Shown here in pieces: positions 1 through 12,968 of a stretch of DNA of 12,968 nucleotides. The DNA is taken from IMG/VR virus record IMGVR_UViG_3300045988_034679, positions 1 to 12,968 of that record. One strand, 5' to 3'. The translations under genes were made by a program, and so were the position numbers. Source of the stretch: a virus. Below the pieces are notes generated by a model. It searched no databases. It saw nothing but the letters and a program-made list of their open reading frames with translations, and was not told where the DNA came from. Within the stretch, counting starts at the first letter, position 1; each line of letters begins with the position of its first letter.

Positions 1-173
1 GGGATTACCTAATAATATACTAATGATACGGCTTCCCCCATAAGCACAGCTAATGGCGAACCAACAGCCACAGCGGCCATGACCAGGACCGGCCGCGACC
101 TGGCCGCGACCTGGCCACGACTTGGCCACGACTTGGGCCACAGCGCCAGAGGCCGCAGCTCTTACGCCACGGC
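1..173. repeat. Left inverted terminal repeat (173 bp, perfect match to right end)
   Basis: Manual base-by-base reverse-complement comparison: 1-173 equals rc(12796-12968), with the first mismatch at 174 vs 12795. It begins GGGATTACC, followed by an AT-rich stretch (4-30) and then a GC-rich section with tandem repeats. Confidence 0.97.
91..134. repeat. Four tandem 11-bp repeats GGCC(G/A)CGAC(C/T)T inside the left ITR, with degenerate flanking copies
   Basis: The copies are ggccgcgacct (91-101), ggccgcgacct (102-112), ggccacgactt (113-123) and ggccacgactt (124-134). Degenerate copies are ggccatgacca (74-84) and gggccacagcg (135-145). The period is 11 bp, about one helical turn. Confidence 0.9.
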
Positions 174-189
174 AAGTTTGTTACCGTTT

Positions 190-215
190 TGTAATCAAAT
201 GTAATTATTTGTAAC
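190..215 (+). promoter_or_regulatory. Three TGTAA(T/C) motifs at exact 10-bp spacing upstream of the left promoter (possible regulator site, bend or UP-like element)
   Basis: The motifs are tgtaat at 190-195, tgtaat at 200-205 and tgtaac at 210-215, in AT-rich context just outside the ITR. Confidence 0.3.
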
Positions 216-225
216 TGGATACTAC

Positions 226-258
226 GGGCCGGAGTGGTATAATAATAGTGGGCCGGAG
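226..258 (+). promoter_or_regulatory. Left (early) promoter: extended -10 TGgTATAAT (235-243) bracketed by a 9-bp direct repeat GGGCCGGAG (226-234 and 250-258)
   Basis: A consensus TATAAT at 238-243 carries a TG at 235-236. No good -35 lies at 17-18 bp spacing, so the promoter would depend on the extended -10. It is the only promoter-like element between the ITR and the first gene. The direct repeats abut the -10 and the predicted +1. Confidence 0.5.
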
Positions 259-301
259 AGCGGCTCCGAGGGATACATCTGATATACAGGAGGAATTGAA
301 C

Positions 302-481
302 ATGAAATTGTATGATAAGAACACCGGCGTTGTTATTGCGGAGATCATTGCTAATCACAGTATGACCATTGATGATGCGCTGACCCTTATGCACTTTAGT
401 ATTGACGATGAGGGGCAAATATTTGATGACGATAACGGTGTCTATCTTGATGCATGGTATGATGATCTGGAACTGAAGTGA
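302..481 (+). CDS. Hypothetical small, highly acidic early protein (59 aa; 11 Asp + 3 Glu vs 3 Lys, no Arg)
   Basis: ATG at 302 follows a CAGGAGGAA RBS (288-296). The ORF-track start at 248 has no RBS. It is the first gene after the left promoter and has no recognisable motif. Confidence 0.6.
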   Translation: MKLYDKNTGVVIAEIIANHSMTIDDALTLMHFSIDDEGQIFDDDNGVYLDAWYDDLELK

Positions 482-1455: not shown

Positions 1456-1615
1456 AACCGGCGAACAGCCGTGTCCCTACAACATCGGCGTCAAGTGTGA
1501 TATCGGCGCTTGTGAGTGCGCCAGATGCGGCTGGTATCCCTTGGAGGCATACCGCCGCCGCAGGGACTTGCAGCAGAAGGGGGGCGCACCATATGGCCAG
1601 CAAGCCCAAAAGTAG
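1442..1615 (+). CDS. Hypothetical Cys-rich mini-protein (57 aa, below the ORF-track size cut-off): MTKNKTGEQPCPYNIGVKCDIGACECARCGWYPLEAYRRRRDLQQKGGAPYGQQAQK
   Basis: Hand-translated. ATG at 1442 lies 9 nt after GGAGG (1428-1432) and the stop TAG is at 1613-1615. The pattern is C-x7-C-x4-C-x-C-x2-C followed by an RRRR patch. It fills a stretch otherwise covered only by an RBS-less GTG extension of the next gene. Confidence 0.45.
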   Translation: MTKNKTGEQPCPYNIGVKCDIGACECARCGWYPLEAYRRRRDLQQKGGAPYGQQAQK

Positions 1616-2243
1616 TGTTCGGGGCCGTCGTGTCAAGTATTCTTTCCCGATCAGCGACTATCAGCTTCCCAGCGCCCTTGCAGAAAATTACAGCAAAAAG
1701 CAGCTGTTGTCCGAGTACAGGGCGCTGCGTATAGAAGCACAGGCCCGCTTGAAAGCGTTCCAAGGGACGAAATACGAGGGGAGTTATGCGTACCAAGCTA
1801 ACAAGCATTTTTTGGCCGGAGCATCATCCCCTTATAAATTAAACAAGCGCCAGCTGGCAGCGGGGCTGTCGGAGCTGGCCAGCTATCTGGAATCCCGAAC
1901 CAGCACACTATCCGGGACACGGTCGCAGGTGCGGAAGTCCATCAACACCTTTAAGGATCGCTGGGGTATGAACTGGCTGAACGAGGCCAATTATGAGGAG
2001 TTTACCAAGTTTTTGGAATTTGCCCGTGAATTGAAGGGGCAAAGGTATATCTTTGAGGAGGTCGTGGCCTTATACCGGAGCGCCAAATATTCGAAAATTC
2101 CTTTGGATCGTGTGAAAAGCAATTTCAATTTTTATTTGGATCAGATAGACATTACCGACGATCCAAACACAGCACGGCAATATCTCCGGCGAGATCCCAG
2201 TAAGCGGCGGAGCGCCAAAACTGTGAGAGGTAAGATGCGATGA
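1593..2243 (+). CDS. Terminal protein (replication primer) candidate, 216 aa
   Basis: ATG at 1593 follows a GAAGGGGGG RBS. Its stop overlaps the DNA polymerase start (ATGA at 2240-2243), the same TP-then-polymerase order and coupling as phi29 genes 3 and 2. The termini are basic (MASKPKSSVRGRR..., ...KRRSAKTVRGKMR) and the protein is predicted helical. No other unassigned protein of suitable size is present in the replication module. The assignment rests on synteny and elimination, not on a motif. Confidence 0.5.
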   Translation: MASKPKSSVRGRRVKYSFPISDYQLPSALAENYSKKQLLSEYRALRIEAQARLKAFQGTKYEGSYAYQANKHFLAGASSPYKLNKRQLAAGLSELASYLESRTSTLSGTRSQVRKSINTFKDRWGMNWLNEANYEEFTKFLEFARELKGQRYIFEEVVALYRSAKYSKIPLDRVKSNFNFYLDQIDITDDPNTARQYLRRDPSKRRSAKTVRGKMR

Positions 2244-4306
2244 AAACAACACCTATGGTGCGGGCCGCCGATGTTGACTTGGCATTTTTGATGCAAGTAG
2301 GGTTTGTCAAGCGTAAGCGAGGGAATCCGGCGAAAAAGCAAGAGCGTAAGTATCTGGACATCATTACAGCCTTTGACATCGAGACCAGCCACCACCCAGA
2401 ACGGGAGGAATCCCTGCTTTACGTCTGGCAGTGGCAATTTGGCGCCTTTTACACAGTCTATGGCCGCACATGGTCGGAACTGCGTTTATTCATCCAGCGG
2501 CTTCTCCGGGTGCTGGACGATCACGGCGATGTGTCTTTGGTCGTTCTGGTGCACAATTTGTCATATGAATTTCAGTTTCTGCGCGGCATTTATACATTTC
2601 AGCCGGATGAGGTTTTTGCCGTGGACTCCCGGCGCGTCCTGAAATGCACGATGGCCGACAAGCGCTTGGAATTCCGCTGTGCTATGCTGCACAGCAATAT
2701 GTCGCTGAAGCAGTATACAAAAAAGATGCACGTTGACCACCAGAAGCTGGACGGCGATGAATTTGACTACAAGGAACTGCGCTTTCCCGACACTCCATTG
2801 ACCGACCGGCAGCTGCAATACTGCCAGAACGACGTCTTGGGGCTGGTGGAAGCGTATCAGGCCGAAATGGCCAGAGATAAGGACAACCTTTATTCCGTCC
2901 CCATGACCAGCACCGGCTACGTCCGAAGAGACTGCAAGCGGGCAATGCGTTTTTGCTCCAGCAAAATGATCCGTGATTTACAGCCGGACGTGGAGCTGTA
3001 TAAAATGCTGCGAGAGGCGTTCCGGGGCGGTGATACACACTGCAACCGCCATTTTGCAGGTAAGGTGCTGGACAATGTCCATAGCGCAGATCGCAGCAGC
3101 AGTTATCCCGATGTGATGTGTAATTGCAAGTTTCCCATAGGCCGCTTTTACGCCTTTGACGGTGGTGTCGACCGTGCCATGGTTTTGTATCATCGTGGCT
3201 ATGCGCTGCTGCTGCGTGTCCGGCTGTGGGATGTGTCCTTGGCAGATCCGGCATGGGGGTTTCCGTATATCAGCTACGCCAAATGCCGGAATACGATCCA
3301 TCCGGTTTTGGACAATGGCCGCATCCTGTCGGCGGAGATGCTGGAGACTACGATCACAGATATTGATCTACGCATCATTTTAGACCAGTACGATTTTAGT
3401 GACATCGAGATCTTGACAGGCTACCACAGCAGATATGACCGGCTGCCGGCGCCGCTGGTGCGCTGCACCATCGACTACTACCAGACTAAAACAAGACTAA
3501 AGGGCGTGGTGGATGAACACGGCCACGAATCGCCCTTTTATAGCAAAAGTAAAAATTTGCTGAACTCCCTGTATGGCATGATGGCGCAGGATCCCGTGAA
3601 GCAATCCATATTGTTTGAAGAAGGCAGCGAATGGTTGTTCCGGCAGAAGGACGAGCCAATCGAGGATTTGCTGAACGCCAACAGTAAACGAGCGTTTTTG
3701 TGCTATCAGTGGGGCGTCTGGGTGACAGCTTGGGCGAGGTACCGACTGCAAGAGGGTTTGCGCATGGCCGACGGCGAACACAGCTGGCCTATTTACTGCG
3801 ATACCGACTCCGTTAAATACATTGGTGATGTGGACTGGGCGGAATATAACAAGAAGCGAATGGCCGACAGTCTACGTTCTGGCGCACACGCAACAGACCC
3901 ACATGGCGAGGAGCATTACATGGGCGTCTACGAGCAGGAGCATACGGCGAACCATTTTGTCAGTCTGGGAGCCAAGAAATACGTCACAGTTTATGAAGAT
4001 GGCAAATGCCGCTGCACCATCGCCGGAGTGAACAAGGAGAAGGGCGGCGCAGAACTTGACAAGCATGGCGGTATTACTGCTTTTAAGTCCGGCTTTTTGT
4101 TTGTGGACGCTGGCGGCACGGAGAGCGTTTATAATGACGATGTGGTGCCGCACACGGAGGAATGGCAGGGACATCGTTTTGAGATGGTGCCTAACATCCT
4201 GATTCGGGACAGCACCTATCGTGTCGGCATTACACAGGACTATGAGGACATCCTGAGCGATCCCGATTACTATTTACTGTGTAAGCACCGGTTCAGGGAT
4301 AAATAA
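2240..4306 (+). CDS. Protein-primed family-B DNA polymerase (688 aa)
   Basis: ExoI is FDIET (D46/E48). ExoII is HNLSYEFQF. ExoIII is YCQNDVLGL. Motif A is DRSSSYPDVM (compare phi29 DVNSLYPAQM). Motif B is KSKNLLNSLYGMMAQ (Kx3NSxYG). Motif C is YCDTDS (3794-3811). The KxY motif is GAKKYV. This order and these motif variants are typical of phi29-type polymerases. Confidence 0.95.
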   Translation: MKTTPMVRAADVDLAFLMQVGFVKRKRGNPAKKQERKYLDIITAFDIETSHHPEREESLLYVWQWQFGAFYTVYGRTWSELRLFIQRLLRVLDDHGDVSLVVLVHNLSYEFQFLRGIYTFQPDEVFAVDSRRVLKCTMADKRLEFRCAMLHSNMSLKQYTKKMHVDHQKLDGDEFDYKELRFPDTPLTDRQLQYCQNDVLGLVEAYQAEMARDKDNLYSVPMTSTGYVRRDCKRAMRFCSSKMIRDLQPDVELYKMLREAFRGGDTHCNRHFAGKVLDNVHSADRSSSYPDVMCNCKFPIGRFYAFDGGVDRAMVLYHRGYALLLRVRLWDVSLADPAWGFPYISYAKCRNTIHPVLDNGRILSAEMLETTITDIDLRIILDQYDFSDIEILTGYHSRYDRLPAPLVRCTIDYYQTKTRLKGVVDEHGHESPFYSKSKNLLNSLYGMMAQDPVKQSILFEEGSEWLFRQKDEPIEDLLNANSKRAFLCYQWGVWVTAWARYRLQEGLRMADGEHSWPIYCDTDSVKYIGDVDWAEYNKKRMADSLRSGAHATDPHGEEHYMGVYEQEHTANHFVSLGAKKYVTVYEDGKCRCTIAGVNKEKGGAELDKHGGITAFKSGFLFVDAGGTESVYNDDVVPHTEEWQGHRFEMVPNILIRDSTYRVGITQDYEDILSDPDYYLLCKHRFRDK

Positions 4307-4349: not shown

Positions 4350-4631
4350 ATGAGAAACCGTAACACAACGAGCGAGACCAAGACCTACAATCACGAGTAT
4401 GTCGTGAGACGAGCAGTGCAGTTTGACAAGGACGTGCTGTTTGACCTGACCATCGACGACTTTACCATCTACGGCTGCCGTGTGGTGGAGGGCAAAAACG
4501 GCGACTTTATCAGCCTCCCCTCCCGCAAAGGGAAGGATGGGAAGTACTGGGGGATCGTCTACAAGCGCTTTAGTCAGGACGAAACAAGTCTGATCCTCGA
4601 CCTGGTCAGCGCCGCTCTGGCCGGGGTGTAA
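4350..4631 (+). CDS. SpoVG-like nucleic-acid-binding protein (93 aa)
   Basis: The core FDLTIDDFTIYGCRVVEGKNGDFISLPSRKGKDGKYWGIVYKRFSQDETSLILDLV parallels B. subtilis SpoVG [54 protein letters not shown], as I recall that sequence. The RV-x-x-G-x-NG-x-F-(V/I)-x-x-PS-(K/R) signature is shared. Confidence 0.7.
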   Translation: MRNRNTTSETKTYNHEYVVRRAVQFDKDVLFDLTIDDFTIYGCRVVEGKNGDFISLPSRKGKDGKYWGIVYKRFSQDETSLILDLVSAALAGV

Positions 4632-5680: not shown

Positions 5681-5701
5681 TCCTTTGTGTTCTGGTATTA
5701 T
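5672..5701 (+). promoter_or_regulatory. Strong sigma-A/sigma-70-type promoter for the lysis and structural genes: TTGACA (5672-5677), 18-bp spacer, TGgTATTAT (5693-5701)
   Basis: It has a consensus -35, a near-consensus extended -10 and an AT-rich upstream stretch (tattaaaatac). It sits in the largest internal non-coding gap and shares the TGGTAT(A/T)AT core with the left promoter. Confidence 0.65.
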
Positions 5702-5706
5702 GTAAA

Positions 5707-5779
5707 GGAGGGAGGGCCGCACAATGTCAGCCCCGGAAGGGCGTGCGTGAGTTTGACAGACTCCTGATGCCCTCCCTCC
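5707..5779 (+). other. Predicted structured RNA at the 5' end of the late transcript: an 11-bp terminal helix closing a three-way junction
   Basis: GGAGGGAGGGC (5707-5717) pairs perfectly with GCCCTCCCTCC (5769-5779). Inner helix CGCAC/GTGCG (5718-5722/5743-5747) encloses the hairpin GCCC-cggaa-GGGC (5730-5742). A second small hairpin is GAGT-ttgacag-ACTC (5749-5763). The 5' arm starts at about the predicted +1 of the 5672-5701 promoter. Confidence 0.45.
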
Positions 5780-5803
5780 CAACAAAATAATCGAGGTGAC
5801 AGT

Positions 5804-6166
5804 ATGCGAGTCTATGTAATTGGCGTGGCAGTCTTTATTGTGGTGGACATCCTGTCCGGCCTGTTGAACGCGCTGTATAACAAAGAGTTCAAGTCTAGTG
5901 TGATGCGCAACGGGCTGTTCCACAAGGCGGGCGAATTTTTGGTCTTGGCCCTGCTGTATCTGGTGGAGATCGAGTCGGCGGCCATGGGCTTGGATGCGGG
6001 CCTGCCACTGTTTAAGACCGGCTGCGGCTATGTGGTGCTGATGGAGATCGGAAGCATCATCGAAAATTTGAAAGTGTTTACGCCAGGTATCGACAACATC
6101 ATCCGAAAGGAGACAGCAACCAATGGCAAAGAAAATTTTTCTGAGTCCCAGCGATCAGACGAGTAA
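5804..6166 (+). CDS. Holin (phage_holin_4_1 / TcdE-like family), 120 aa, three predicted TM segments
   Basis: GAGGTG RBS at 5793-5798. The hydrophobic segments are VYVIGVAVFIVVDILSGLLNALY, EFLVLALLYLVEI and GCGYVVLMEIGSIIENL. The VDxxSG...K...S...G...HK and E-x-x-S-I-x-EN motifs are typical of that holin family. It lies immediately upstream of the endolysin and overlaps it. Confidence 0.8.
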   Translation: MRVYVIGVAVFIVVDILSGLLNALYNKEFKSSVMRNGLFHKAGEFLVLALLYLVEIESAAMGLDAGLPLFKTGCGYVVLMEIGSIIENLKVFTPGIDNIIRKETATNGKENFSESQRSDE

Positions 6167-6794
6167 CCGGTACGCCTACGGCAACACCTCCGAGGCGATC
6201 CAGTGCGGCAAAATTGCGGTGGCACTGGAGGAGTCGCTGACACGCTGCGGCTTTGCGGTACGGCTTGTGCATTATCAGGATATGGCCACAAAATGTGCAA
6301 ATGCCGATGCATGGGGAGCAGACCTTTACATCCCTATCCACACCAATGCCTGCAACGGCGAGGTGTCCGGCACACGCATCTATACCTATGACAACACCGG
6401 AGAGGGCCGTAAGGCCGGACTGTGTGTCTATCACAATCTGGCGCCGCTGACACCGGGAAAGTCTGACAATATCAGCGCAGACGCCAGCCTGTACGAAATT
6501 CGCAAACCGGCGGCGCCGACCGTTTACTGTGAATGCGAGTTTCACGACGTCCCCGAGACGGCCCGCTGGATCATCACCCATACTAAAACTATCGCTGAAG
6601 CAATCTGCAAGGGCGTGTGCGAATATTTCGAGACCCCCTACAAGGCCCCGGACGAAGCGCCCAAAACCGAAACACTGTATCATGTACAAGTCGGAGCGTT
6701 CCGGGATCGGAAGAACGCCGAAAAAATGTTGGAATCCGTGAAATCACACGGATTTAAGGCTTTTATTAAGGAGGAAAAGCATGAAAGCAACTGA
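6123..6794 (+). CDS. Endolysin: N-acetylmuramoyl-L-alanine amidase (Amidase_3/MurNAc-LAA-like) with a C-terminal SPOR domain, 223 aa
   Basis: The N-terminal IFLSPSDQTSNRY...E...ADLYIPIHTNA...CEFHD pattern matches amidase_3-type zinc amidases. The C-terminal YHVQVGAFRDRKNAEKMLESVKSHGFKAFIKE (nt about 6675-6779) is a typical SPOR repeat. The start overlaps the holin 3' end by 44 nt. Confidence 0.75.
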   Translation: MAKKIFLSPSDQTSNRYAYGNTSEAIQCGKIAVALEESLTRCGFAVRLVHYQDMATKCANADAWGADLYIPIHTNACNGEVSGTRIYTYDNTGEGRKAGLCVYHNLAPLTPGKSDNISADASLYEIRKPAAPTVYCECEFHDVPETARWIITHTKTIAEAICKGVCEYFETPYKAPDEAPKTETLYHVQVGAFRDRKNAEKMLESVKSHGFKAFIKEEKHESN

Positions 6795-7125
6795 TATTAT
6801 CGCATTGGCAACTGCTGGCTACACGGCGGAGCAGATTGCCGTCATCGCAAAGGCTGCCAAGGAGCAGCCGGTACAGCAGCCGGTACAGCAGCCGGTACAG
6901 CAGCCGGTACAGCAGCCGGTACAGCAGCCGGTACAGCAGCCGGTACAGCAGCCGGTACAGCAGCCGGACGGTTATGCGGATCTGATGGGCAGGCTTGACG
7001 CACTGACCACACAGATCCAGCAAAGCGCTATCCAGCATAGCGCACAGCCCCCTGAGGATACGGCCGATGATATCTTGGCAAATATCATTGACCCGCCCGA
7101 ATTTCACCCGACAAACAGTAAATAA
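6781..7125 (+). CDS. Scaffolding protein candidate (114 aa) containing a perfect (PVQQ)x8 repeat
   Basis: AAGGAGG RBS at 6768-6774. It lies directly upstream of the capsid gene and has a size and position comparable to phi29 gp7. Helical N- and C-terminal parts are joined by the Q/P-rich repeat. The function is inferred from synteny only. Confidence 0.5.
   Translation: MKATDIIALATAGYTAEQIAVIAKAAKEQPVQQPVQQPVQQPVQQPVQQPVQQPVQQPVQQPDGYADLMGRLDALTTQIQQSAIQHSAQPPEDTADDILANIIDPPEFHPTNSK
6865..6967 (+). repeat. Perfect 12-bp tandem repeat CAGCCGGTACAG x8 plus a partial ninth copy (cagccgg)
   Basis: Read directly: copies start at 6865, 6877 and so on to 6949, and the partial copy is at 6961-6967. 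The repeat is in frame and encodes QPVQ units. Confidence 0.97.
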
Positions 7126-8384: not shown

Positions 8385-8418
8385 ATTTACGAAGGTGGTG
8401 ATACATTTGTTTCCTGTA

Positions 8419-9792
8419 ATGCTATGGAAATTTTCCAAGACGGAAAACAGCACAAAGAGACCTTCGGACAGCGACTCCACCATGGTGGACTGCGAGACCA
8501 ATAACGACTTTGACCTGCTGCATCCGGTATTTGTGTTTAGCTTCCGTGGCGGCAGCAGCAATCCCACGCAGTATAATTACTGCTATGTGGGAACTTTTAA
8601 GCGGTATTACTGGATCACTGGGTGGACTTTTAGCAATGGCCAGTGGGTCGCTGATTGCACCGTGGACACGCTTGCCAGCTGGAAGCCGGATATTGGAGCA
8701 CTAAACGCATATGTTCTCCGATCCGCCGCAGAGTGGGACGGCAACATCATTGACAATATGTATCCGGCAAAGACGACTATTAGCACGGAACTGTCTGCCG
8801 GGGAGAAAAGCCCGTGGAGTACAGACCCTGAAAAAGGCACCTTTGTTGTGGGCATCATTGGGGCTGGGGCCACACAATATATCATGTTCACCAAGTCCGC
8901 CTTAGATTTATTTCTGAAGTACATTTTGTCGGATGCGTACGCAGTTAAGGCAATGGGGATATTGGGGTTTGCGACAAATAGTGAATTAAAAGCGGTGCTT
9001 GACCCCCTGCAATACATTTCCAGTATTGTATGGCTTCCGTTCCAAAAAGTCGGGTCTATCATTGACACTGTCAGGGTTGGCTATGTGGACGTGCCAGTGG
9101 CCGCAAGTAGTGTAGATTCGGGAATCGGATACGCAGAAATTAACTGGAATTTGCGGCGTCATCCCATGGCGGCAAGCCGTGGAGCCTATATGAACGCATC
9201 TATGGCGCACTACGATATGTTTTATCCGCCATTTGGTGTCATATCTCTGGATCCCGTGGTGTGCGCTAATACGGATACTATACATACGTTAGCCTTGGTA
9301 GATCTTAAAACTGGGCACGGCACGTTGATAGTCCAAACCAAAGAAGATAGGATTGTATCCCGAATCAGTGGCCAAGTTGGGATGGCATATCAGATCGGGC
9401 AGGTGACGGCCCCCGGATATGGTTTGGGCGCACTTGTTACTGATGCAATAGGCGTCGGCATGGCAGCGATTACTGACAACTACACCGGAACGATCGCCGG
9501 AGGGCTGTCCGCCATAGGAAACGCTGCCAAGGGGCGCATTCCAAGTGCTAATACCGTGGGCGGTGCTGGAGGCGCTGATCAGCTTCGAGGGATCCCCGCA
9601 ATGCTGTACGAATGGGAGATCCCAGTCGACGAAGATTTGACAGACAGGGGCAGACCTTTGTGCCAAGTACGGCGCATCAATTCGCTGCATGGATATGTTC
9701 TTTGTAGCGATGTTGAAGTTGATATACCGGCAACACAAAATGAAATTAGCGCAATTAAAGCATTCATGGAGGGGGGCTTTTACTATGAGTGA
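8419..9792 (+). CDS. Tail knob / distal tail tube protein (phi29 gp9-like), 457 aa
   Basis: The N-terminal block YNYCYVGTFKRYYWITGWTFSNGQWVADCTVDTLASW parallels phi29 gp9 [42 protein letters not shown], as I recall that sequence. It lies between the capsid and connector genes as in phi29. The start is uncertain: ATG at 8419 (MLWKFSKTENSTKRP) or TTG at 8407, 8 nt after GAAGGTGG. Confidence 0.65.
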   Translation: MLWKFSKTENSTKRPSDSDSTMVDCETNNDFDLLHPVFVFSFRGGSSNPTQYNYCYVGTFKRYYWITGWTFSNGQWVADCTVDTLASWKPDIGALNAYVLRSAAEWDGNIIDNMYPAKTTISTELSAGEKSPWSTDPEKGTFVVGIIGAGATQYIMFTKSALDLFLKYILSDAYAVKAMGILGFATNSELKAVLDPLQYISSIVWLPFQKVGSIIDTVRVGYVDVPVAASSVDSGIGYAEINWNLRRHPMAASRGAYMNASMAHYDMFYPPFGVISLDPVVCANTDTIHTLALVDLKTGHGTLIVQTKEDRIVSRISGQVGMAYQIGQVTAPGYGLGALVTDAIGVGMAAITDNYTGTIAGGLSAIGNAAKGRIPSANTVGGAGGADQLRGIPAMLYEWEIPVDEDLTDRGRPLCQVRRINSLHGYVLCSDVEVDIPATQNEISAIKAFMEGGFYYE

Positions 9793-11329: not shown

Positions 11330-12784
11330 ATGGCGTTTGAACAATTCCCCTATACAAATTTACACGACCTCAACTTGGATTGGCTGTTGAAAACGGTCAA
11401 GGACACCAAGGACATTCTCGACAACACCGACATCCCGCAGCACGTCAGGGACGAACTCACTGTAATGTATAACGATGGGCGGCTGGAGAAGCTGGTCAAC
11501 GAGCGGATTCTGGCCGGAATACAGGCAAAGGTGGACGCCAACGCTGAAAGCATCGGGACGGCGAAGGAGGACATTGCAGCGAACGCGGAGGCCATCGGGA
11601 ACTTGAAGGTGACTGCAACGCTGGCGATGTTATCGGCACCAGACGCAGTGTCCGGTGATCCTGATCGTGGATATTCGCTGTGTATGGTGATCTACAACAA
11701 AGATTTCTGCGTCGTTTACGACCACGGCAATGACAGCGCAAACCGGCTGTTGGAGTATCTGCGGCAGAATGGCGTCAAGAAAATTACGGCATTCGTCGGC
11801 TCCCACTATCACAGCGACCATTGCACACTGGCGGGCGTTACGACAATTCTCAACAGCGGGATTCCTGTGGAAAAGTGGTATCTGCCTAACGGCGCCGTCA
11901 GTTGGGATGCATTCAAAGGCGTGAATTATCAGGCCGTACAGACCAGCATCAAGAATGCAATTACCGCCGCCGGCGGCGTGATCGTGGAGCCTGCCACGGA
12001 GGGAATGATGGTACAGGTGTCCAAAGCCGTCTATCTGGAGTTTTACAATGTTGCAGCACCAACCATCGCAGGGTATTACAACTACACGCTGGACGAGGAT
12101 TTGACCGACACCGGCAACACCAATTACAACAACTTTTCCATGTGCGCCCGGCTGCGAGTCGGGGACAAAATTCTGGCGCTGACCGGCGACATCGAAGAGC
12201 CTGCACAAGATAAGATGTTCCCCATCGTGCAGGGCGTGGACGTGATCCAGTTACCACACCACGGACTTGATCTCCGGGACAGCCACACCTTTATCCGTTC
12301 CATGGGAGCATCCGTCTATTTGACTGCGGCATATGGCATCGCAAGGTTTTACCGGCTGCAGTATCTCAGCAATGCGATGCTGCATAGGGCGATCATGTCC
12401 GGAAATTCCCTGTCCACGCTGGGCGGAAAAACCATCGAAATGGTATTTGGTTACAATGGATGCTATGTAACGGCGCCGGGGGCGCCCACGCCAATAGGGA
12501 CGTTTGGAGAAAGCATCCCGGCGGGCAGCGACTTCAACGACTATCGGGAAATCGGGTTTGCGGGGTATGTCCAGAATGCCAGCGTTGCGGCCAAGGTTGC
12601 CAATATGCCGGGGGCTTCTGGTGGCCGTCTCTGGGTAATAGCCAGCAACCAAAACAGCCAGCCTCACGGTAGTCTGGTGCAGGTATTCCTCCCTGCGTTT
12701 AGCTATGCGCACCCGGAGGTTAGTATTCGGATGCTGGATGATGACGCATGGAAGCCCTGGAAGACGTTCAAGACAGCCGACTGA
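11330..12784 (+). CDS. Tail appendage / receptor-binding protein with an embedded metallo-beta-lactamase-fold hydrolase domain (484 aa)
   Basis: AAGGAGG RBS at 11316-11322. The N-terminal FPYTNLHDLNLDWLLKTVKD is a fibre-anchor-type motif, followed by the repetitive AKVDANAESIGTAKEDIAANAEAIGNLK. The MBL motifs are SHYHSDH (HxHxDH, 11801-11821), NNFSMCARLRVGDKILALTGDIEE (12182-12199 covers TGDIEE) and IQLPHHG (12251-12265), as in ComEC-type MBL domains. The C-terminal 150 aa or so, ending ...GRLWVIASNQ...LVQVF...IRMLDDDAWKPWKTF, resembles fibre knob domains. Confidence 0.75.
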   Translation: MAFEQFPYTNLHDLNLDWLLKTVKDTKDILDNTDIPQHVRDELTVMYNDGRLEKLVNERILAGIQAKVDANAESIGTAKEDIAANAEAIGNLKVTATLAMLSAPDAVSGDPDRGYSLCMVIYNKDFCVVYDHGNDSANRLLEYLRQNGVKKITAFVGSHYHSDHCTLAGVTTILNSGIPVEKWYLPNGAVSWDAFKGVNYQAVQTSIKNAITAAGGVIVEPATEGMMVQVSKAVYLEFYNVAAPTIAGYYNYTLDEDLTDTGNTNYNNFSMCARLRVGDKILALTGDIEEPAQDKMFPIVQGVDVIQLPHHGLDLRDSHTFIRSMGASVYLTAAYGIARFYRLQYLSNAMLHRAIMSGNSLSTLGGKTIEMVFGYNGCYVTAPGAPTPIGTFGESIPAGSDFNDYREIGFAGYVQNASVAAKVANMPGASGGRLWVIASNQNSQPHGSLVQVFLPAFSYAHPEVSIRMLDDDAWKPWKTFKTAD

Positions 12785-12795
12785 TACAGCCGGAG

Positions 12796-12968
12796 GCCGT
12801 GGCGTAAGAGCTGCGGCCTCTGGCGCTGTGGCCCAAGTCGTGGCCAAGTCGTGGCCAGGTCGCGGCCAGGTCGCGGCCGGTCCTGGTCATGGCCGCTGTG
12901 GCTGTTGGTTCGCCATTAGCTGTGCTTATGGGGGAAGCCGTATCATTAGTATATTATTAGGTAATCCC
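12796..12968. repeat. Right inverted terminal repeat (173 bp)
   Basis: It is the exact reverse complement of 1-173. It begins 11 nt after the stop codon of the last gene. Confidence 0.97.
12835..12878. repeat. Mirror copy of the four 11-bp tandem repeats inside the right ITR
   Basis: The copies are aagtcgtggcc (12835-12845 and 12846-12856) and aggtcgcggcc (12857-12867 and 12868-12878). This is the reverse complement of 91-134. Confidence 0.9.

Follow-up and report, generated by a model that had tools for sequence, protein, structure and literature searches.

An 11-bp tandem array in the terminal repeats of a phi29-like gut phage, best read as a strain-variable minisatellite beside a short likely origin

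Here we analysed the inverted terminal repeats (ITRs) of a viral genome, IMG/VR record IMGVR_UViG_3300045988_034679, whose whole stretch of 12,968 nucleotides is called the window throughout. The window is a complete linear genome, that of a 13-kb gut phage of the phi29 type, and each of its ITRs holds an array of 11-bp GC-rich repeats that an initial annotation had proposed as a docking site for an origin-organising protein. Comparison with related genomes points elsewhere. On balance we consider it probable that the 173-bp ITR is composed of three parts: an origin core, a dispensable spacer containing a minisatellite, and a block that forms one arm of a hairpin. Zone 1 (positions 1-56) is likely the minimal origin, and the sequence comparisons suggest that the 11-bp array is best read as a slippage-prone minisatellite within the dispensable spacer, not as an essential docking site.

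Results

The 11-bp array changes in copy number between near-identical strains

The left ITR (1-173) and the right ITR (12796-12968) are inverted copies of each other, 100% complementary over 173 nt, so the perfect ITR with 5'-GGG ends described previously can be read directly from the sequence. The array lies on the + strand at 91-134, with its mirror at 12835-12878, and is made of four exact 11-mers (two of GGCCGCGACCT and two of GGCCACGACTT). Pattern matching confirmed these four tandem copies, with exact matches to GGCCRCGACYT starting at 91, 102, 113 and 124 and at the mirror positions, and Tandem Repeats Finder (TRF) returned a period of 11 with 5.4 copies and 87% match over 83-141. When one mismatch was allowed the genome contained 10 matches to the consensus against 0.94 expected, a number reached in none of 200 shuffles.

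The relatives used for comparison were found through the polymerase and not through a whole-window nucleotide search; megablast of the whole window against deposited phages gave no nucleotide match. The close relatives comprise 12 IMG/VR contigs and one ENA contig, with polymerases 95-98% identical to that of the window and about 92% nucleotide identity over 84-95% of the genome. Seven of them that reach the terminus were aligned (alignment A1), and the wider comparison covered both ends of 98 family genomes (about 100 relatives in all).

Within this narrow group the number of 11-mers ranges from five in L005 and four in the window, through at least two in L004 (whose contig begins within the array) and two each in L006 and L087, to about 0-1 in L007 and none in L002, L008 and L010. 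Since a distinct sequence occupies the array site in the zero-copy strains, these are not collapsed arrays, and where both ends were assembled the copy number was equal at both (5+5 in L005, 0+0 in L002). Outside the sub-clade of the window, scanning both ends of the 98 family genomes revealed no 11-bp GC-rich array. The proposal of a conserved origin-organising docking site thus fails on conservation: strains that share 95-98% polymerase identity carry 5, 4, 2 or 0 copies, and the 11-mer is restricted to one sub-clade.

The array has the features by which minisatellites are recognised, namely copy-number polymorphism in near-identical genomes, identical neighbouring units and a non-coding position. 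Adjacent units are identical in the window (AABB) and in L005 (AAA), which indicates recent duplication of single units. Features of a p6-type array are missing: the array is not conserved, and none of the candidate DNA-binding proteins varies with it. A coding role was considered and rejected, as the open reading frames (ORFs) that cross the array, 79-204 (+) and 50-418 (-), lack family support and each 11-nt unit shifts the frame. We also rejected a conserved structure in single-stranded DNA or RNA. The units are quasi-palindromic (GGCC, CCAGG/CCTGG), so that several copies can pair mutually, and the surrounding spacer has a folding z score of about -3 in the window and in L005, whereas the score stays above -1.3 in five strains that have 0-2 copies; structure arises only with at least four copies and is therefore a by-product of the units.

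A search for further strains with the exact terminus of the window gave five IMG/VR contigs and one metagenome-collection contig. Exact-protein look-ups found only the same strain from another sample, and a search with the pattern CCCATTACRTAATAA returned mostly chance matches, yet recovered two full contigs. The same strain is present in other assemblies as L224 (ENA ERZ28598826) and L225 (Logan ERR1398201). The L224 contig, from another sample, is cut within the 11-mer array at both ends, which could be an assembly tangle or could reflect copy-number heterogeneity in the population.

A conserved core, a hypervariable spacer and an inner block

Alignment of the close relatives divides the ITR into three zones. 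Zone 1, the core (1-56), includes the terminal GGG, an AT-rich stretch and a TTCCCCC box, and columns 9-56 of A1 are almost all invariant. Zone 2 (57-136) is a hypervariable GC-rich spacer that holds the array and differs between strains by substitutions, indels and copy-number change. Zone 3 (137-173, GCCACAGCGCCAGAGGCCGCAGCTCTTACGCCACGGC) is conserved in A1 and is missing at the left ends of L008 and L010, which have shorter ITRs. ITR lengths in relatives range from 14 to 193 nt: that of L002, at 137 bp, is 36 bp shorter than in the window, while L163 and L178 have ITRs of 14 bp only, and in some relatives the first promoter directly follows the TTCCCC box. For these reasons about 40 bp of terminal sequence appears to suffice in this family.

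The zones also differ in composition. The AT-rich stretch at 4-29 (mirror 12940-12965), ATTAC followed by TA-rich sequence, is 81% A+T against 47% genome-wide, a value reached by only 18 of about 12,600 26-nt segments of the unique region (0.14%), which bears out the end-proximal AT-rich stretch of the initial annotation. Both ATTAC (4-8) and the AT-richness are kept in relatives with GGG- and CCC-type ends, and the stretch is likely an unwinding zone. Positions 60-173 are 71% G+C, exceeding every 114-nt segment of the unique region.

The two ITR copies had been taken as evidence of active homogenisation because they are perfectly identical. In a short-read contig this is weak evidence, since assembly collapses ITR copies and so partly forces their identity. 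The strong difference of ITRs between strains against their match within a genome is better evidence, and homogenisation itself remains a plausible reading. It is not universal, because the ITRs of other clades are just 90-95% identical between ends. Where it does occur, it could proceed by pairing of the two copies in the displaced strand or by template switching.

A C-rich box lies at a fixed distance from the end

The TTCCCCC box of the window (33-39 on the + strand; mirror 12930-12936) keeps a constant spacing to the end of the genome. In almost all clades of the family for which an end is complete, the first base of TTCCCC falls 32-38 nt from the terminal base, and the sequence separating the two cannot be aligned across clades. 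The same element is found in cultured phages, starting at 31 from the right end in phi29 (L084) and B103 (L222), at 32 from the right end in GA-1 (L221), at 34 from both ends in Cp-1 (L223), and at 29 from both ends in phiCP7R (L242/L245), there beyond the annotated 25-bp ITR. Av-1, 44AHJD and C1 carry looser C-runs at the same place. TTCCCC is a rare hexamer, with only 1-14 copies per genome over both strands, and the probability of its falling at this distance by chance is about 0.001-0.012 per genome. Genomes whose ITRs are very short carry the box only at the end from which early genes read inward. The box may serve in recognition or positioning of the initiation complex, or else in packaging or ejection. 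We found no mention of it in the searchable literature, which does not cover older subscription papers.

In other clades, GTGGACA or CGGACA repeats recur every 21-24 bp within the ITRs and flank the TTCCCC box on both sides (right end of L015, 20-126; left ends of L026, L038, L052 and L054, 21-97).

Terminal triplets follow a base 1 = base 3 pattern

Both window ends read 5'-GGGATTACCTAATAATATACTAATGATA / 5'-GGGATTACC, so that the template's 3' end is CCC (3'-CCCTAATGG). The terminal GGG (1-3 on the + strand; mirror 12966-12968) is where contig ends coincide in independent assemblies: the window, L002 and L005 end exactly at this base at both ends, and contigs L006, L008, L087, L058, L069, L015 and L077 also stop at it. 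In contigs of a related clade (L032, L037, L045 and L236) Illumina adapter remnants (…GTGTGCTCTTCCGATCT) abut the terminal base, which marks it as a physical DNA end. Such remnants in public viral contigs contaminate the records, yet they help to identify true ends.

Several end types occur in the family. The type GGGATTAC is shared by the window clade, L015, L058, L069 and L077, and the type CCCATTAC by L070, L232 and L233, with both ends confirmed in the full contigs L163 and L178. GCG is found in L034, L037, L054, L063, L064 and L236, GTG in L038, L045 and L080, and CTC in L239. Base 1 equals base 3 in all five triplets (GGG, CCC, GCG, GTG and CTC), and the triplets change either by all three G becoming C together or by the middle base alone. 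Among isolates, phiCP7R (ATA), Av-1 (TGT) and HM2 (ACA) follow the same pattern, and 44AHJD (TAA) and the astrithr isolate (GGC) do not.

These ends qualify the published generalisation that the termini of phi29-like phages are always three identical bases (PMC6266182), which the GCG, GTG and CTC ends of this family contradict. They also modify the terminal reiteration that the initial annotation had invoked for sliding-back. A reiterated GGG is present at both window ends and is kept as GGG or CCC in relatives, which fits internal initiation and backward translocation, but GCG, GTG and CTC stand elsewhere and the constraint in the family is base 1 = base 3, not a run of G. Sliding-back is established for phi29, Nf, GA-1, Cp-1 and PRD1 (PMC4974454), and a third-to-first jump for Bam35 (PMC5175343). 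By analogy the base 1 = base 3 pattern points to the third base as template, as happens in Bam35 (PMC5175343), and for the window it is reasonable to predict a terminal protein-dGMP product and then a backward step.

We would put forward, as a tentative idea that may well prove too broad, that phi29-like phages in general combine a C-rich box, usually TTCCCC(C)A, 29-39 bp from the protein-capped end with base 1 = base 3. This joint reading draws on the ends GCG, GTG, CTC, ATA and TGT, and neither rule, the fixed-distance C-rich box or base 1 = base 3, was found in the searchable literature. If true, the C-rich box would be a second origin or terminus element beyond the usual minimal origin of 6-12 bp, and the Bam35-style third-to-first jump would be widespread in tailed phages.

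Zone 3 forms one arm of a hairpin at the right end

The last gene (11330-12784, + strand) ends close to the right ITR, which starts 12 nt past its stop codon. An RNA hairpin with a 15-bp stem and a 6-nt loop (12789-12824, + strand) begins 5 nt past the same codon and is markedly stable against shuffles (z = -4.65). Its 5' arm begins in unique sequence and its 3' arm lies within zone 3. Two pairs are maintained through two-sided, compensatory changes in six relatives, and the window hairpin contains G.U in the mRNA sense against A.C on the opposite strand. The hairpin has no U-tract. From these sequence features it is likely a terminator or a 3' stabiliser of the rightward transcript, although we infer its exact role. 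Zone 3 would thus be conserved because it supplies the 3' arm of the hairpin at the right end.

At the left end, four TGTAAY/TGTTAC repeats with spacings of 11, 10 and 10 bp lie in unique sequence at 179-215 (+ strand; TRF period 10), and are kept in all close relatives with 3-5 copies. As a possible regulator-binding array we consider them more promising than the 11-mers. They adjoin, on its upstream side, the first promoter-like site (216-243, + strand; TGGATA-16-TATAAT with a TG extension), whose -10 box is bracketed by a direct repeat of GGGCCGGAG (226-234 and 251-259).

The proposed array binders are present with or without the array

The initial annotation had named a SpoVG-like protein and Cys-rich basic proteins as possible binders of the array. 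The former (93 aa; 4350-4631, + strand) matches PF04026 (E = 6.8e-8) and PDB 2i9x (E = 1.3e-5), and the latter are two ORFs, Cys67 (67 aa; 1164-1367, + strand) and Cys57 (57 aa; 1442-1615, + strand). Wherever the contig of a close relative covers them, all three are present at 71-98% identity, zero-copy strains included (76-97% for Cys67 and 71-85% for Cys57, the latter at 45% in L013 and L015). Beyond the close relatives the SpoVG-like gene can be detected just in the clades closest to the window, and the GTGGACA repeat of L015, which has the gene, is common to a large clade that lacks it and absent from the window clade. Since these proteins are present whatever the copy number, and SpoVG-like presence is mismatched to repeat type, nothing ties them to the array, and the proposal that they bind it finds no support.

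Two specific candidates were rejected. The SpoVG-like protein does not behave as a reader of ITR repeats, as GTGGACA is shared by clades with and without the protein and the repeat of the window clade is different. Nor does the array behave as a cluster of targets for the phage DNA methyltransferase (478-1167), with a homologue (about 51% identity) in the zero-copy L002 and none detected in the five-copy L005. No match to a p6-like family was seen in Pfam or PHROG scans of the window proteins. A gene for a stage V sporulation protein has already been reported in clostridial phi29-like phages (PMC3362512).

Alternative readings of the array

Several observations weigh against a purely passive array. 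The core motif GCCRYRRC is found in the same orientation in all close relatives, its two innermost copies are constant, and 11 bp is near a helical turn; some sequence-specific binding is possible, and the phased ITR repeats of other clades (GTGGACA/CGGACA, every 21-24 bp) may mean that repeated sites in ITRs have a function that recurs. Since the copy numbers were read from short-read metagenome assemblies, they may be off by a unit or two. The initiating base and the terminal protein are likewise inferred, as is what the TTCCCCC box does.

One alternative is that the 11-mers and their core are iteron-like sites, where a phage or host DNA-binding protein sits on one helix face and acts as an auxiliary origin enhancer or as a replication/transcription switch. 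Copy number would then tune strength and would not be all-or-none, as with adenovirus NFI/Oct-1 sites and the Spo0A boxes of phi29 ends. We rate this as possible but doubtful. The window does have same-orientation direct repeats of period 11, four exact and others degenerate, on one strand: GCCRYRRC occurs nine times on one strand at 67-173 (spacings 9, 16, 11, 11, 11, 12, 15 and 14), where shuffling by composition yields 0.14 on average and the background rate is 0.36 per kb per strand, a comparison inflated by the post hoc choice of the motif. The degenerate flanking copies described previously are therefore real as a recurring core but carry an inflated statistic, and the helical phasing claimed for the array is approximate, the period of 11.0 bp being close to the helical 10.5 and not equal to it.

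Every close relative keeps 2-7 copies of the core, always in a single orientation, but the sequence and number of the full repeats are not kept and only the 8-nt core survives. The two innermost core copies are always present because they lie within the hairpin arm, so the right-end RNA explains their constancy. Phased repeats do flank the TTCCCC box in other clades, but the presence of the SpoVG-like protein does not follow repeat type across clades, and the clades with 14-bp ITRs have no such repeats. Small basic Cys-rich and SpoVG-like proteins are encoded near the array, and yet the 11-mer is absent from L002, L008 and L010, which have all of these candidates.

A further reading, which we think unlikely, is that the array was selected for its bulk properties, as a GC-rich clamp beside the AT-rich end that limits fraying and stabilises a panhandle formed by the ITRs in a displaced single strand, so that length and G+C content matter and sequence does not. 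The exceptional G+C content of 60-173 agrees with such a clamp, but L002 copes with an ITR 36 bp shorter and distant relatives with one of 14 bp. ITR copies are alike within genomes and differ between strains, and out-of-register pairing of tandem units would produce the copy-number changes observed; however, the ITRs of other clades are only 90-95% identical, and phi29 replicates from both ends without a panhandle (PMC4974454). Finally, although de Bruijn assemblers are confused by tandem repeats and ITRs, and the independent assembly L224 of the same strain breaks within the array at both ends, an assembly artefact is a very improbable source of the array or of its copy number, given that four independent contigs, each from a different sample, share the 11-mer unit but differ in its count and variants, that the array spans 44-57 bp in all, less than the length of a read, and that zero-copy strains carry a distinct sequence at the site.

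Genome type and gene content

The credible genes of the window all lie on the + strand, and by their sequence content the genome is that of a phi29-like podophage. The protein-primed family B DNA polymerase (2240-4306) matches PF03175 (DNA_pol_B_2) with E = 1.4e-12, above the curated cut-off, and the phi29 gp16-type packaging ATPase (Podovirus_Gp16, PF05894; 4634-5680), the phi29-type major capsid protein (Phi29_MCP, PF25622; 7138-8352) and the phi29 connector (Phage_connector, PF05352; 9841-10800) each score above their cut-offs. A holin and an amidase were assigned by Pfam at 5804-6794. Together the four phage families support the protein-primed linear replicon of the initial annotation.

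The ORF at 1590-2243 (+ strand) is, by position, a candidate terminal protein of 217 aa: it lies directly 5' of the polymerase gene and overlaps its start. It has no homology to known terminal proteins, and no match in Pfam, PHROG or PDB, and is found at 25-39% identity across much of the family and also in phage HM2.

No packaging RNA (pRNA) was matched in the window by Rfam even at E <= 1, a search that a divergent pRNA would escape, and the same scan gave no other credible family. The pRNA is thus unmatched despite a gp16-type ATPase and a connector; the non-coding gaps are 1-301, 5681-5803 and 12785-12968. The gap at 5681-5803 holds the best promoter match of the genome (TTGACA-18-TATTAT with TG).

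By polymerase the closest isolates, at 33-36% identity, are the Amedibacillus phages AD70P2 and AD70P3 (Guelinviridae), Clostridium phage HM2 and Astrithrvirus. Human and animal gut metagenomes contain hundreds of uncultured relatives, 12-15 kb in size, a diversity already noted in a recent review (PMC11476376). Genome bins were considered as a source of host information and rejected, as the bin names conflict (Clostridiales, Christensenellaceae, Treponema, Bacteroidales), and no host is claimed.

Outside the ITRs several regions vary between strains. The left accessory region (302-1167) is strain-specific: a homologue of the first gene (59 aa) was detected among the fetched relatives only in the second assembly of the same strain, and the DNA methyltransferase at 478-1167 (phrog_757, E = 3e-51) has homologues, at 42-52% identity, in only five fetched relatives (L002, L087, L014, L021 and L023). 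Positions 6863-6967 hold a perfect 12-bp tandem repeat of 8.8 copies that encodes (QPVQ)n in a 114-aa protein upstream of the capsid gene; the L007 and L225 contigs break within it, and a weak Rfam match to isrG there is spurious. The 465-aa protein encoded between capsid and connector (8395-9792) is mosaic, with 96-97% identity in some strains but only 46-49% in others, where the rest of the genes are about 95% identical, a pattern that suggests from sequence a swapped receptor-binding or tail module.

Discussion

By analogy with phi29, Cp-1, PRD1 and Bam35, replication of the window genome would begin with binding of the terminal protein and polymerase heterodimer to the protein-capped end, after which the AT-rich stretch would open. 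In the same phages' manner, the terminal protein would receive dGMP opposite an internal C of the 3'-CCC, most likely the third, and the complex would move back to base 1 and then elongate. The TTCCCCC box is a putative positioning or recognition element in this scheme.

In the reading that we favour, the four 11-mers would be a young minisatellite amplified from the shorter GCCRYRRC motif, by replication slippage or by out-of-register pairing of ITR copies, and once about four copies are present the hairpins they form would favour slippage. The array would be dispensable for replication and would at most contribute GC-rich length beside the origin or weak binding sites. Zone 3 at the right end would act as the 3' hairpin arm closing a single rightward transcription unit, and at the left end it would be a passenger carried by ITR homogenisation, L008 and L010 being without it there.

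The array resembles the minisatellites (variable-number tandem repeats) of bacteria and viruses in its short head-to-tail units, identical neighbours, copy number that varies in near-identical strains and non-coding position. It differs from them in sitting within an ITR, so that each change must be copied to the other end. The likeness to phi29 p6 is one of concept, a periodic protein array beside the ends that opens the origin. Monomers of p6 contact DNA every 12 bp (PMC4974454), but their binding is not directed by a repeated sequence, and the array of the window is absent from sister strains.

As judged by its sequence elements, the ITR of the window is closest in layout to that of the Streptococcus phage Cp-1 (Salasmaviridae), which has a 236-bp ITR and 3'-TTT ends. 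The two share a long perfect ITR, a terminal homotrimer, a TTCCCCC box (34 nt from both ends in Cp-1) and a terminal-protein gene, in the window a candidate by position, directly 5' of the polymerase gene, both genes reading rightward from the left end. In Cp-1 it is established that initiation takes place at the third template base and that stepwise sliding-back follows (PMC4974454). Cp-1 differs in having AAA and not GGG ends, an ITR that is AT-rich throughout and without a GC-rich tandem array, and a genome of 19 kb against 13 kb; its polymerase is too dissimilar to feature among the tblastn matches of the window polymerase.

PRD1 (Tectiviridae), with a 110-bp ITR, 3'-CCCC ends and a terminal protein-dGMP product, shares the G-run terminus (GGGGATACG against GGGATTACC in the window) and the C-rich boxes that follow it. 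Its initiating nucleotide is dGMP and stepwise sliding-back follows (PMC4974454). It differs in its four Gs, in an unrelated virion that is tailless and contains a membrane, and in having no tandem array. For Bam35 (3'-ATA...), the likeness is that the base 1 = base 3 rule of the window family is what a third-to-first jump requires (PMC5175343); it is, however, a tectivirus, and the GGG end of the window fits stepwise sliding equally.

A more distant parallel is offered by adenovirus, whose ITR begins with an AT-rich terminal origin and continues into a GC-rich inner part that varies in length between types. The ITR of the window likewise has an AT-rich end and a GC-rich, variable inner part; adenovirus differs in being a eukaryotic virus with a trinucleotide terminal repeat (CATCAT). 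Window positions 11-20 (AATAATATAC) are identical to bases 8-17 of the adenovirus ITR, within CATCATCAATAATATACC in the core origin region, but this 10-mer is AT-rich and was found post hoc, so the identity is probably due to chance.

Taken together, the window presents a typical protein-primed phage end whose most striking feature, the 11-bp array, would be a passenger that varies from strain to strain. Within the ITR, constraint falls on positions 1-56 and on the hairpin arm. For a large family of uncultured human-gut phages, the likely functional origin is thereby narrowed to about 56 bp. Two suggested regularities of protein-primed ends, base 1 = base 3 and the TTCCCC box at a fixed distance, could possibly aid the design of artificial origins for phi29-type amplification and orthogonal replication.

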